From assembly GCF_055900595.2 (NCBI RefSeq), contig NZ_CM148325.1: 64,000 bases of DNA; one strand, given 5' to 3'. The notes beneath the pieces are model-generated. The model saw only the letters and a list, made by a program, of their open reading frames with translations, was not told the origin of the DNA and did no database searches. The stretch's first letter is position 1. Each line of letters starts with the position of its first letter. Shown piece by piece: positions 52,105-56,946 of this stretch. A program made the position numbers and the translations under genes.

Positions 52105-53466
52105 TTATTTCTCCAGTTGCTTCAGGATACGATTAACTTTATCAAAAGTTTCCTGATATTCCGCTTCTTCCTGGCTATCAGCGACAATTCCACCGCCCGC
52201 AGAGCAGTATATTTGTCCGTTAATGGCAGTCAGCGTGCGGATAGTAATGCTGGTATCCATGTTGCCGCAAAAGCTCAAATAGCCAATGCTGCCGCACCAG
52301 GCATTGCGTCGCTGCGGTTCCAGTTCGTCGATAATTTCCATAGCCCGTACTTTCGGTGCTCCAGTTATTGAGCCACCAGGAAAAGCTGCGCGCAGCAGAT
52401 CGCTGGTGTGTAACTGTTCTGGTAGTTGCGCCGTTATGGTGCTGACCAGATGATGCACGGCAGGGAAGGGTTCCACCACGAACAGCTCTGGTACTTTTAC
52501 CGAACCTGCTACGGCAACACGACCGATATCATTACGCATTAAATCGACAATCATCAGATTTTCGGCACGATCTTTCGCTGAGTTCGCCAGTTTTTCTGCT
52601 TGTTTGCTATCTTCCTGAGGATCGGGTAGGCGTGGTAGCGTGCCTTTAATCGGGCGGGTCTGGATTTCACTATTATCACAAAGAATAAACCGCTCTGGCG
52701 AAAGGCTTAAAATCGCGCCCTGTTCAAGACGTAAAAAAGCGCTAAATGGCGCGCGGTTGGCCTGATTAAGCTGAAGGAATGCCTGCCATTCATCGCCAGA
52801 ATAGGTCGCATGGAAACGCTGGGCGAGATTCACCTGATAGCAATCACCGCTGTGCAGATATTCCTGTACCTGGCGAAATTTTTCGCCGTACAGCTCGCGG
52901 GTCATATTGGATTGCCAGTCGGAAGTGAGCGTGAAATCTTCCTGCGGCGAGAATTGCTGGCTTTCCAGCCAGGCCCGACGGGCATTGACATCATTATGAC
53001 TCAGCAAAGAAACTGTTTGACGCTGGTGGTCGACAATGAGCGCCCAGTCGTAGATACCCACAGCCATATCCGGCAGAACGATATCTTGCTGCGCAATTTC
53101 TGGCAGTGACTCAAAACGGCGGCCCAGATCGTAGCCAAACAACCCCATCGCGCCGCCCTGAAATGGCAAATCTTCGTTATGCGCTGGGCGAATGTCTGCG
53201 CGATCCAGCACCTGCTGGAGCACCTGTAGCGGGTCATCAGTGGTCGTTGTGCGTTTTTCGCTTTCACTAACAACGGTTTCTTTACCGAAAGTGGTTAAAG
53301 TGCAAATCGGCTCGGCGACCACAATATCAAAGCGGCTATATGGATGATCGGCATAGCCGGAGTGTAAAAGCATCGCCCACGGCAGGTGACTTAAGCGGGA
53401 GAAATAAAATTCAGCGGCGTCCTGACGCCAGGGTAAAGTAATCACAGCGGGAGATAACGTCTTCAT
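52105..53466 (-). CDS. pabB: aminodeoxychorismate synthase component I
   Basis: 453-aa ORF. Confidence 0.95.
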
Positions 53467-53539: not shown

Positions 53540-53719
53540 ATGTTTGCAGGTTTACCTTCACTCACCCATGAACAGCAGCAAAAAGCCGTCGAGCGGATCC
53601 AGGAACTGATGGCACAAGGGATGAGCAGCGGCCAGGCAATCGCGTTGGTGGCAGAAGAGCTGCGTGCCAACCATTCCGGTGAGCGAATCGTGGCGCGTTT
53701 TGAGGATGAAGACGAGTAA
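53540..53719 (+). CDS. yoaH: small protein YoaH (UPF0181); under the ORF-track cutoff
   Basis: Hand translation [59 protein letters not shown], 59 aa, with GGAG RBS. Confidence 0.8.
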
Positions 53720-53838
53720 CACACTAATCCGTATCGCTTTCGTTATACAAGCCGATGGTTATTTGATTGTGAGAAAAAGGACGCTTTTCATATGTGATTA
53801 AAAGCGTCCTGACCCATTTATGCTGATGTAAATTTAAC

Positions 53839-54138
53839 TTAGACCAGTGCTTTTAGTTCTTCCTGCATATATGTTGAAAAGTATTCAGGATTTTTAATCA
53901 CAATGCGTTCACCAGACTCCATTTTTTTTGCCCATCCAACCATTTTTTCCGTGAACCCTGGGTTCCAGCCTTCCTGGTCAGCTCGCGCCGTAATATCAGC
54001 GGCACTCGCGGGTACTCCCAGTTCTTTCAAATATTTAAAGATTCCCTTCGCCGTGCTTTCATTCATCGAACTTGGTGTTGGCGCTGATACATCCATGGCA
54101 CCAATGAAATCCAGGGCTTTATCTATTACAGCAGGCAT
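53839..54138 (-). CDS. yoaC: DUF1889 protein YoaC (start at MPAVIDKALDF)
   Basis: 99 aa; the track ORF has a 20-codon extension. Confidence 0.8.
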   Translation of the reverse strand: MPAVIDKALDFIGAMDVSAPTPSSMNESTAKGIFKYLKELGVPASAADITARADQEGWNPGFTEKMVGWAKKMESGERIVIKNPEYFSTYMQEELKALV

Positions 54139-54559
54139 ATTCTTATCCTTAAAATTAACCATGTTATCGATAAGGCTATATATGACCTTAATTTGCATCT
54201 AATATCAAAGGGATTATAACGATATGGCACGAGTTAACCTGTTGACATTCAGGTGTTTTAAAGGTAGCAGCTCATGGTGTGTTATCCAGTAAGAGGGAGA
54301 AAATTAACGGTCAGTTCTCACGCTATAACCAGATTGTTCAGCTAAGAAAGAAAACAAGAGATGCTAATCGAAGGGCGAACACAACGGCATTGTTATGTTT
54401 ATTTATATAGTTAGTTTTATAGCTAAAATTGAAATTATAAAAATAAATAATGAATTAGCAGGAGCATCAACAGTAATATCTTAATCTCTGGTCGATTTAT
54501 GTAAAACCGACCAGTATTATCGATAAATTATCGTCTGACTTATTTTGCTTCGATAAAGC

Positions 54560-54904
54560 TTACACCGCAGCCACAATCTTAATTTCAACTTTATACTTCG
54601 GGTTCATCAAACCCGCTTGTACCGTGCAGCGCACCGGCGCATGACCCGCGACAACCCAGGCATCCCACGCTTTATTCATCGCCGCGAAGTCGTTTTTATC
54701 AGCCAGGAAAATGGTGGCATCCAGAATGCTCGATTTATTGCTGCCCTGTTTTTCCAGCACGGCGTCAATCTGCGCCAGCGTGTTGGCGGTTTGCTCAAAG
54801 GCATTGGCGTCGAGGTTTTCCGGTACACCAGTGTAGTAGAGCGTGTTGTTGTGGATTACTACATCAGACCAGCGGGCTTCAGCATCGATACGAACGATAG
54901 TCAT
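54560..54904 (-). CDS. yoaB: RidA/YjgF-family protein YoaB (start at MTIVRIDAEA)
   Basis: 114 aa. Confidence 0.88.
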   Translation of the reverse strand: MTIVRIDAEARWSDVVIHNNTLYYTGVPENLDANAFEQTANTLAQIDAVLEKQGSNKSSILDATIFLADKNDFAAMNKAWDAWVVAGHAPVRCTVQAGLMNPKYKVEIKIVAAV

Positions 54905-55035
54905 CATTTTGTCCTCATTATCCTTCCATTTTCGTGCTGCAAAGACTGCCACAATGTGAGGTCGCCGTCACCACTTCAACTGGCGAAAGCGCCCTCATCC
55001 TGACATAATCCCTGTTCAAATCAACAGGGGGTAGT

Positions 55036-56946
55036 GTGACGGACGATTTTGCACCAGACGGTCAGCTGGCGAAAGCGATACCAGGCTTTAAGCCGCGAGA
55101 ACCACAGCGACAGATGGCGGTAGCCGTCACCCAGGCGATAGAAAAAGGCCAGCCGCTGGTGGTGGAAGCAGGAACCGGTACGGGCAAAACCTACGCTTAC
55201 CTGGCTCCTGCGCTGCGGGCGAAAAAGAAAGTCATTATCTCGACCGGCTCAAAAGCGTTGCAGGATCAGCTCTACAGCCGCGATTTGCCAACAGTCTCAA
55301 AGGCATTGAAATATACGGGCAACGTGGCGCTGCTGAAAGGGCGCTCTAACTACCTCTGCCTCGAACGTCTCGAACAGCAGGCGCTGGCGGGTGGCGATCT
55401 ACCGGTACAAATTTTAAGCGATGTGATCCTGCTGCGCTCCTGGTCTAATCAAACAGTCGATGGTGATATCAGCACCTGCGTCAGCGTGGCGGAAGATTCA
55501 CAGGCGTGGCCGCTGGTCACCAGCACCAACGACAACTGCCTTGGCAGCGACTGCCCGATGTATAAAGATTGCTTTGTGGTCAAAGCACGCAAAAAAGCGA
55601 TGGACGCCGATGTGGTGGTGGTAAACCATCATCTCTTTCTGGCGGATATGGTGGTGAAAGAGAGTGGATTTGGCGAACTGATCCCGGAAGCGGACGTCAT
55701 GATCTTTGACGAAGCCCATCAGCTGCCCGACATTGCCAGCCAGTATTTTGGTCAGTCACTCTCCAGTCGACAACTGCTCGACCTGGCAAAAGACATCACC
55801 ATCGCCTACCGCACCGAATTAAAAGACACCCAGCAGTTACAAAAGTGCGCCGACCGCCTTGCCCAGAGCGCGCAGGATTTTCGCCTGCAATTAGGTGAGC
55901 CAGGTTATCGTGGTAACCTGCGCGAACTGTTAGCTAATCCGCAAATTCAGCGAGCATTTTTACTGCTCGATGACACCCTGGAACTTTGTTATGACGTGGC
56001 GAAACTGTCGCTGGGGCGTTCCGCCTTGCTGGATGCGGCATTTGAGCGCGCCACGTTGTATCGTACGCGGCTGAAACGGCTAAAAGAGATCAATCAGCCG
56101 GGCTACAGCTACTGGTACGAATGCACTTCGCGCCATTTTACTCTGGCACTCACGCCGCTCAGCGTGGCGGATAAATTCAAAGAGTTAATGGCGCAAAAAC
56201 CAGGTAGCTGGATCTTTACCTCAGCAACGCTGTCGGTGAATGACGATCTGCATCATTTTACCTCGCGGCTTGGCATTGAACAGGCAGAGTCGTTGCTGTT
56301 ACCCAGCCCGTTTGATTACAGCCGCCAGGCGTTACTCTGTGTGCCGCGCAACCTGCCGCAAACCAACCAGCCGGGCTCCGCACGGCAACTGGCGGCAATG
56401 CTGCGACCGATCATCGAAGCTAACAACGGTCGTTGTTTTATGCTTTGTACCTCGCACGCCATGATGCGCGATCTGGCTGAGCAGTTCCGCGCCACCATGA
56501 CGCTTCCCGTGTTGTTGCAGGGGGAAACCAGCAAAGGCCAACTGCTACAGCAGTTTGTCAGCGCCGGTAACGCGCTGCTTGTGGCGACCAGCAGTTTCTG
56601 GGAGGGGGTGGATGTGCGTGGCGATACATTGTCATTGGTGATTATCGACAAGTTGCCGTTTACCTCCCCAGATGACCCGTTGTTAAAAGCGCGCATGGAA
56701 GATTGCCGTTTGCGCGGTGGTGACCCGTTCGATGAAGTACAGCTGCCGGATGCGGTCATTACTCTCAAGCAGGGAGTAGGGCGACTGATTCGCGACGCCG
56801 ACGATCGAGGGGTTTTGGTGATTTGCGATAATCGGCTGGTGATGCGTCCTTACGGCGCGACCTTCCTCGCCAGTCTGCCGCCCGCGCCACGCACCCGTGA
56901 CATTGCCCGTGCGGTTCGTTTCCTTGCGATACCATCCTCCAGGTAA
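55036..56946 (+). CDS. yoaA: DinG-family ATP-dependent helicase YoaA (GTG start)
   Basis: 636-aa ORF with Walker A GTGTGKT and DEAH box. Confidence 0.93.
   Translation: MTDDFAPDGQLAKAIPGFKPREPQRQMAVAVTQAIEKGQPLVVEAGTGTGKTYAYLAPALRAKKKVIISTGSKALQDQLYSRDLPTVSKALKYTGNVALLKGRSNYLCLERLEQQALAGGDLPVQILSDVILLRSWSNQTVDGDISTCVSVAEDSQAWPLVTSTNDNCLGSDCPMYKDCFVVKARKKAMDADVVVVNHHLFLADMVVKESGFGELIPEADVMIFDEAHQLPDIASQYFGQSLSSRQLLDLAKDITIAYRTELKDTQQLQKCADRLAQSAQDFRLQLGEPGYRGNLRELLANPQIQRAFLLLDDTLELCYDVAKLSLGRSALLDAAFERATLYRTRLKRLKEINQPGYSYWYECTSRHFTLALTPLSVADKFKELMAQKPGSWIFTSATLSVNDDLHHFTSRLGIEQAESLLLPSPFDYSRQALLCVPRNLPQTNQPGSARQLAAMLRPIIEANNGRCFMLCTSHAMMRDLAEQFRATMTLPVLLQGETSKGQLLQQFVSAGNALLVATSSFWEGVDVRGDTLSLVIIDKLPFTSPDDPLLKARMEDCRLRGGDPFDEVQLPDAVITLKQGVGRLIRDADDRGVLVICDNRLVMRPYGATFLASLPPAPRTRDIARAVRFLAIPSSR

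Follow-up and report, generated by a model that had tools for sequence, protein, structure and literature searches.

An AT-rich interval between yoaB and yoaC of Escherichia coli is probably a composite of the yoaB 3' untranslated region, a drifting spacer and the yoaC promoter and leader

Position, composition and annotation of the yoaB-yoaC gap

The window analysed is a stretch of 64,000 nucleotides (64 kb) of the E. coli chromosome, and its genes were named from the open reading frames (ORFs) and from the RefSeq annotation of identical DNA. As shown in Table 1, pabB, yoaC and yoaB lie on one strand and yoaH and yoaA on the other, and yoaB is separated from yoaC by an intergenic region of 421 nt, hereafter the gap. 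The first-pass annotation of this DNA, made from the sequence alone, had described an AT-rich region with no assigned feature. The exact coordinates, the GC content of 32.8% and the RefSeq annotation of MG1655, in which the homologous interval 1893712-1894132 holds no feature, all bear this description out. For comparison, the whole window has 50.1% GC, yoaC 44.7% and yoaB 51.6%, and the local GC content is lowest, 28-30% in 200-nt windows, at 54300-54599. The AT-rich run and the short hairpin that had been pointed out are both present, the run at about 54393-54452 and the hairpin at 54490-54512, where the full inverted repeat spans 54488-54498 and 54504-54514. The gap sequence is single-copy, and it was found in 5424 of 5426 complete E. 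coli genomes, mostly at 95-99% identity.

Table 1. Genes, mapped transcript ends and predicted elements at the yoaB-yoaC locus (positions in the window)
Feature	Position	Strand	Basis
pabB	52105-53466	minus	
yoaH	53540-53719	plus	
yoaC islet, 840-nt insert between the convergent yoaH and yoaB stops	53720-54559		empty site in sister genera
yoaC	53839-54138	minus	
Site of MG1655 1894397(-)	within 53839-54138	plus	Adams 2021
AT-rich intergenic region (gap), 421 nt, yoaB/yoaC	54139-54559		ORF coordinates, GC content
yoaC leader, Shine-Dalgarno AAGGA at 54146-54150	54139-54212	minus	conserved with yoaC across genera
Consensus -10 TATAAT of the predicted proximal yoaC promoter	54218-54213	minus	sequence reading
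22-codon ORF, judged non-coding	54224-54292	plus	not conserved
LysR-type box TCA-N7-TAA, centre about -49 from the predicted TSS	54249-54261	plus	one mismatch to the YhaJ box
yoaC TSS 54254 with weak -10 TACCTT at 54261-54266	54254-54266	minus	Kim 2012
LysR-type box TCA-N7-TTA, centre about -72 from the predicted TSS	54272-54284	plus	one mismatch to the YhaJ box
AT-rich spacer, near-neutral rate	about 54290-54483		identity compared with 4-fold sites
YhaJ ChIP-seq motif, TTATAGATAAAATTGA in K-12 and UPEC, TTATAGCTAAAATTGA in the window	54417-54432	plus	Connolly 2019 SI
yoaB 3' UTR, 76 nt, to the mapped RNA 3' end	54559-54484	minus	Adams 2021 Term-seq
Stem-loop CUGGUCG(GUUU)-UACAU-(AAAU)CGACCAG closing the yoaB transcript	54488-54514	minus	fold and compensatory changes
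Weak promoter with -10 TATTAT at 54515-54520 and TSS 54527	54515-54527	plus	Kim 2012
Perfect H-NS high-affinity motif tCGATAAATT	54520-54529	plus	motif match
yoaB	54560-54904	minus	
yoaA	55036-56946	plus	

The gap belongs to an insert found in Escherichia

The corresponding loci of sister genera were fetched via YoaH homologues. There, yoaH and yoaB converge with only 0-7 nt between their stops in Salmonella, Citrobacter, Klebsiella and Enterobacter; therefore, Escherichia carries an 840-nt insert exactly between abutting stops. In this insert, which we call the yoaC islet, yoaC stands between a spacer of 119 nt, which has a bidirectional terminator, and the 421-nt gap. A scan for YoaC with one genome per species gave 19 loci, among which yoaC was placed between yoaB and yoaH in the Escherichia loci only. 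The Buttiauxella yoaC adjoins fis and dusB, and the yoaC genes of Citrobacter, Lelliottia and Klebsiella are found in other, unrelated contexts.

Two marks of a genomic islet, presence in a single lineage and an empty site in the sister lineages, were thus observed, and the mobility signatures of such islets were not. yoaC is the sole gene of the insert, mobility genes are absent, and neither terminal direct or inverted repeats nor a target duplication was seen at 53720/54559. A plasmid search for a donor of the islet returned only mislabelled chromosomes and chromosomal DUF1889 loci. Judged from the comparison of loci, the islet, and with it the gap, was inserted in Escherichia. The first-pass annotation, which overlooked this membership of the gap, had proposed reference annotation and conservation across the Enterobacteriaceae as checks; the former holds nothing for MG1655, and as to the latter, the gap insert proved to be confined to Escherichia.

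The yoaH end of the islet varies greatly in length within Escherichia: between yoaC and yoaH, E. coli has 119 nt and E. albertii has 124 nt, two lineages have about 310 nt, and another two have 554 nt. In the E. coli spacer (53720-53838), the bidirectional terminator hairpin is located at 53778-53810, and published Term-seq 3' ends fall within the spacer on both strands (MG1655 1894457- and 1894498+). Adams 2021 (PMC7815308) also lists a Rho-dependent region antisense to yoaC (MG1655 1894397(-), score 3.16, p = 1.1e-5), which indicates that read-through from yoaH, running antisense across yoaC, is stopped by Rho. A further variant of the locus was met in E. coli XJ5.2 (NZ_CP074354.1), in which IS1 destroyed yoaC and left its last 25 codons or so. 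About 590 nt of unrelated sequence lie between this IS1 and the yoaB hairpin, and the hairpin region of XJ5.2 is closer to the variant of Escherichia sp. MOD1 than to typical E. coli.

Constraint is concentrated beside yoaC

The pattern of conservation was taken from an alignment of seven Escherichia sequences. About 140-150 nt beside yoaC were well conserved in this alignment, and the remainder aligned poorly, with large indels. Compared with the other Escherichia species, the 151 nt nearest yoaC had an identity of 0.85-0.88, the middle spacer one of 0.69-0.74, and the 76 nt that follow yoaB one of 0.71-0.79. As the neutral reference, 4-fold-degenerate sites in yoaA, yoaB and pabB gave 0.65-0.75. 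Since the identity of the spacer is about that of the 4-fold sites, the middle of the gap drifts near the neutral rate, and purifying selection acts on the proximal part. Variation within the species was distributed in the same manner, 27 variable sites among eight E. coli genomes lying distal to 54290 (most of them in the spacer, 54290-54483) and 4 lying proximal to it. In Escherichia sp. MOD1, the spacer is largely deleted and yoaC is intact.

Repeats beyond chance expectation were not found in the gap. The repeat TTATCGATAA, with copies at 54164 and 54517, was considered as an element; in AT-rich DNA as long as the gap, chance alone should give roughly 0.25-0.5 repeats of 10 nt, and the copy nearest yoaC is without conservation in other Escherichia, so this repeat was set aside.

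The yoaB 3' untranslated region and its stem-loop

A Term-seq 3' end at MG1655 1893787(+) was recorded in all three growth conditions by Adams 2021 (PMC7815308, Supplementary file 1), where it was classed as 'orphan', lying >50 nt from a stop codon. This end corresponds to position 54484 of the window, 76 nt past the yoaB stop codon and 4 nt past a stem. The hairpin has a core stem of 7 bp, which extends to 11 bp, and a loop of 5 nt. The minus-strand RNA of 54562-54470 folds with -22.5 kcal/mol (z = -3.8), a value reached by none of 200 shuffles, and the plus strand of the hairpin region folds worse (-16.8 kcal/mol, z = -1.8).

Among eight Escherichia sequences, the stem was paired in 93% of cells, compared with 16-48% in shifted register. 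Compensatory double changes were found at two pairs, the stem reading CUGGUCG/CGACCAG, CUGGCCG/CGGCCAG or CUGACCG/CGGUCAG, and the single-step intermediates are G-U pairs, which are valid on the minus strand only. In the covariation control on the eight sequences, 79 and 94 of 500 shuffles equalled the real alignment on the two measures that count pairs, and the hairpin covariation, seen in this small sample, is supportive rather than conclusive. The table of Kim 2012 holds no minus-strand transcription start site (TSS) between the yoaB stop and the hairpin, and it places a yoaB TSS with 448 reads upstream; therefore, the 3' end is explained by the yoaB mRNA.

The hairpin shares with a canonical Rho-independent terminator a G+C-containing stem of 7-11 bp past the stop codon and a 3' end close by. 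It differs in what comes after the stem, which is AGAGAUUAAG, with no U-tract; moreover, a terminator scan of 53700-55050 returned 0 terminator-like sites. Therefore, the yoaB hairpin is not a canonical intrinsic terminator. Farther on, a Rho-dependent region with its peak at 1894019(+) was reported by Adams 2021 (PMC7815308, Supplementary file 2), with a Rho score of 3.15 and p = 2.4e-6 on low read counts (92/41 untreated and 67/94 with bicyclomycin). The peak maps to about 54252, only 2 nt from the yoaC TSS of Kim 2012, and the score could come from a derepressed yoaC promoter instead of read-through. The simplest reading of these data is that yoaB transcripts end at the hairpin, or get trimmed to it, and that Rho limits transcription into the yoaC region.

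The yoaC promoter region and its regulators

That the gap may hold the yoaC promoter had been suggested in the first-pass annotation, and this suggestion is supported by the constraint on the proximal 150 nt, from the promoter elements described below and from published starts and ChIP of YeiE, RNA polymerase and YhaJ. A yoaC TSS was mapped by Kim 2012 at 1892041(+) in NC_000913.2 with 21 reads; it falls at 54254, behind a weak -10. The block CTGCTACCTTTAAAA around this start is invariant in six of the seven Escherichia sequences.

Closer to yoaC, a second promoter is predicted from a consensus -10 hexamer, which would place the TSS at about 54205/54206. The hexamer at its -35 position, CAGGTT, is a poor match. 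The TATAAT is likewise invariant in six of the seven sequences, and a -10-like element together with the following CTTTGAT is kept beside yoaC in other genera. A consensus promoter scan gave 2 promoter-like sites, against 2.9 expected from shuffled controls, and the published TSS data consulted for comparison contain no start at 54205/54206. The proximal promoter is a prediction, and it may be used in the manner proposed below.

Two LysR-type boxes are found upstream of the predicted start, each with one mismatch to the YhaJ box. The half-sites of the box at 54249-54261 are invariant in six of the seven Escherichia sequences; those of the box at 54272-54284 are kept, and its N7 spacer varies in five of the seven. 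Sites near -49 and -72 form the classical activation and recognition arrangement of promoters controlled by LysR-type transcriptional regulators (LTTRs). The box at 54249-54261 overlaps the mapped TSS at 54254; therefore, repression would fit that start, not activation.

The consensus of YhaJ is TCA-N7-TGA (Palevsky 2016). An exact box of this kind, a dyad of the T-N11-A type, was not found in the gap. YhaJ itself has been located at yoaC: the SI table of Connolly 2019 gives a yoaC intergenic peak of 7.2-fold (p = 2.5e-13) with the motif TTATAGATAAAATTGA in UPEC, and yoaC is among the five known YhaJ-regulated targets that were bound in both EHEC and UPEC. The motif lies inside the AT-rich run mentioned above and is an imperfect T-N11-A box, TAG-N7-TGA against TCA-N7-TGA; the YhaJ ChIP peaks are about 430 bp wide, and the published assignment of motifs is imperfect. 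According to Gao 2018, YeiE binds upstream of the RNA polymerase site at yoaC and activates yoaC. The published data agree that the yoaC-proximal part of the gap is a bound, active promoter region, in which either LTTR may recognize either box.

The yoaC leader and start codon

About 75 nt upstream of the yoaC ATG can be aligned in Klebsiella, Citrobacter, Lelliottia and Buttiauxella. The last 26 nt before the ATG (54139-54164), GGTTAATTTTAAGGATAAGAAT, are about 96% identical in Escherichia, Buttiauxella, Citrobacter, Lelliottia and Klebsiella, compared with about 68-76% identity for the YoaC proteins of those genera. GGTTAATTTTAAGGATAAGAAT is not coding, as its frame is disrupted by indels of 1 nt. 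A conserved RNA structure in the leader was considered and rejected, with z = 0.08 and an alifold energy of -0.6 kcal/mol without covariation.

The yoaC frame is open upstream of the annotated start as a 119-codon ORF (53839-54198, minus), and the older MG1655 annotation in Kim 2012 set the yoaC start at an upstream ATG (1892097 in NC_000913.2). An N-terminal extension of YoaC (MVNFKDKN-M, or the 119-aa ORF) was rejected, since the ATGs upstream lack conservation and the frame is disrupted by indels of 1 nt in both E. albertii and Klebsiella. Positions 1-96 of 96 of the Pfam DUF1889 model align to the 99-aa YoaC, which supports the current start.

An H-NS motif and an antisense start near the end of yoaB

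The motif tCGATAAATT (Lang 2007) occurs in the gap as its only perfect copy in the 64-kb window. It lies just upstream of the spacer, inside the yoaB 3' UTR, where the local GC content is 28-30%, and it is largely retained across Escherichia. A match of this kind within AT-rich DNA is what would be expected of an H-NS nucleation site, and H-NS may bind here. A plus-strand TSS was mapped at the same place, at 54527, antisense to the 3' end of yoaB. In Kim 2012 it is given as 1891768(-) in NC_000913.2, with 12 reads, and is assigned to yoaA with a 509-nt leader; Adams 2021 (PMC7815308) has no discrete 3' end that matches this antisense start. The most economical reading is that the start at 54527 is spurious initiation in AT-rich DNA.

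Alternative explanations

The first-pass annotation had allowed for a small protein or an unannotated small RNA in the gap, and neither is supported by the present data. The ORF of 22 codons that it pointed out does exist, as do other short ORFs, such as one of 43 codons with a GTG start (54279-54410). The 22-codon ORF is intact in seven of the eight E. coli sampled, AAGG stands about 11 nt upstream of its start, and one number is missing from the series of RefSeq locus tags between yoaC and yoaB in E2348/69 (RS10330/RS10320) and in ATCC 25922 (RS15790/RS15800), which suggests that a gene call was once made in the gap and later withdrawn; in other genomes the tags of the two genes are consecutive. 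Against coding, start, frame and stop of this ORF are not conserved among relatives: a TGG-to-TAG change makes a premature stop in E2348/69, and four further lineages of Escherichia (E1V33, SCPM, E. whittamii and E. albertii) have lost the start codon. The ORF shares sequence with the promoter block that is conserved best, and it is because this block is constrained that the ORF remains intact in E. coli. Moreover, Kim 2012 gives no known plus-strand TSS upstream of it, Pfam has no match for it or for the other short ORFs of the gap, and the Stringer 2021 supplement has no sORF entry at the gap coordinates. The remaining short ORFs are no better conserved, and that of 43 codons lies in neutrally evolving sequence and is broken in two of the eight E. 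coli. A mini-ORF of five codons, ATG-nnn-TGC-TAC-CTT-TAA, was also considered; its seeming conservation is better explained by an LTTR half-site and the -10 of the mapped TSS. A small protein encoded in the gap is therefore highly improbable. An independent regulatory RNA, either a fragment of the yoaB 3' UTR or the antisense RNA that starts at 54527 and runs into yoaB, would have in its favour the reproducibility of the 'orphan' 3' end in three conditions, the stable and covarying hairpin, and the plus-strand start itself with its 12 reads and TATTAT -10. However, the yoaB mRNA accounts for the one discrete RNA 3' end of the gap, as no minus-strand start lies between the yoaB stop and the hairpin; the antisense start has no discrete 3' end; and neither Adams 2021 nor Kim 2012 documents a separate transcript that both begins and ends within the gap. 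The hairpin region does not fit an Hfq-type sRNA, for which a promoter or processing site, a terminator hairpin with a U-tail and a conserved seed would be expected: the hairpin has no U-tail. The sequence outside the stem, including the middle of the gap, drifts at a near-neutral rate, and an Rfam scan at permissive thresholds gave chance-level matches only, the best in the gap being a nematode snoRNA at E = 2.2. We regard such an RNA as very unlikely, and as marginally less probable still a hidden post-transcriptional layer, in which the fragment with the yoaB hairpin or the antisense RNA from 54527 is functional or GGTTAATTTTAAGGATAAGAAT is the operator of an sRNA or a protein.

The distal two-thirds of the gap might also be the remnant of a decayed gene or mobile element that came with yoaC and is now without function. 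This explanation overlaps with the composite regulatory region that we prefer on the origin of the spacer, and it differs only by denying the gap a present role. The neutral rate, the large indels between Escherichia lineages, the deletion of nearly all of the distal part in one of them with yoaC intact, and the insertion of IS1 at the locus in one E. coli strain would all agree with decay. However, tblastx against the genes that neighbour yoaC in other genera gave no match to the gap with E under 0.29 and hence no similarity at the protein level, there are no terminal repeats and no internal ones beyond chance, and the plasmid matches are only chromosomal copies of the locus. Within the distal part lies the motif published from YhaJ ChIP-seq, and the H-NS motif and the hairpin have been retained. 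A remnant with no present role is thus unlikely.

Interpretation and significance

We conclude that the gap is, with a probability of about 0.78, an ordinary composite non-coding regulatory region, made up of the yoaB 3' UTR, a spacer, and the yoaC promoter and leader. This conclusion is built on the insertion, the pattern of constraint and the covariation of the hairpin, together with the effect of Rho and the 3' end, TSSs and ChIP peaks that have been published; from these we infer binding of H-NS, use of the proximal promoter, the pairing of LTTRs with boxes and the way in which the 3' end is formed. The gap would have arrived with yoaC in the Escherichia ancestor as one AT-rich insert of 840 nt. 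At its yoaB end, the yoaB mRNA would end 4 nt past a stem-loop that lacks a U-tract and whose most likely role is to block 3' exonucleases or to serve as a non-canonical terminator, and Rho would halt read-through transcription farther downstream of the hairpin. The following 190 nt or so of drifting AT-rich DNA are likely a platform for the binding of nucleoid proteins and LysR-type regulators. The last 150 nt or so would be the control region of yoaC, with a weak upstream promoter (TSS 54254) and a stronger-looking proximal one that has TATAAT, no -35 and LysR-type boxes at about -49 and -72, a layout that is typical where a promoter depends on activation by an LTTR such as YeiE or YhaJ. A leader of about 67 nt with a good Shine-Dalgarno sequence would come after the proximal promoter.

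Each part has known counterparts. With its stable and covarying stem and a 3' end 4 nt beyond it, the yoaB end resembles other mRNA 3' ends that are defined by a stem-loop without a U-tract, and, in having no U-run at the hairpin and a Rho-dependent region downstream, it resembles transcripts that are terminated by Rho and then trimmed. The hairpin is single-copy and is not a REP element, and trimming would be one choice and direct termination the other. The yoaC promoter can be compared with the LTTR promoters of the YhaJ regulon (yqjF, ybiJ, yhaK and yhhW), as yoaC is a known YhaJ target in EHEC and UPEC, and with activator-dependent LTTR promoters in general, as it has a good -10, no -35 and T-N11-A boxes at typical positions. 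It differs from the YhaJ regulon in that the gap has no exact TCA-N7-TGA, a second LTTR, YeiE, has been reported, and the published motif is about 280 bp upstream of the start codon, away from the promoter.

Xenogeneic silencing by H-NS and Rho would fit the low GC content, the foreign origin, the H-NS motif, the weak promoters on the two strands and the Rho effect. The yoaC islet is lineage-specific and AT-rich and carries a perfect H-NS motif, and its gap has weak promoters on both strands and a Rho-dependent effect, as in such silenced DNA. Unlike typical silenced islands, it holds one gene in 840 nt and has neither mobility genes nor repeats, and H-NS may occupy it.

Every functional piece of the gap is of a well-known kind, and most of them are already present in published genome-scale tables. 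Two points are modestly new, namely that the yoaC islet was inserted exactly between two convergent genes that abut, and that the 'orphan' 3' end is assigned to yoaB. In place of 'no feature', the region can carry the labels yoaB 3' UTR, spacer, and yoaC promoter and leader, which has little importance beyond annotation. For yoaB, the insertion gave the gene a new 3' end built from foreign DNA. For yoaC, a gene of unknown function whose knockout is sensitive to boric acid and which is a target of YhaJ and YeiE, the map of the promoter helps its study or its use as a reporter.
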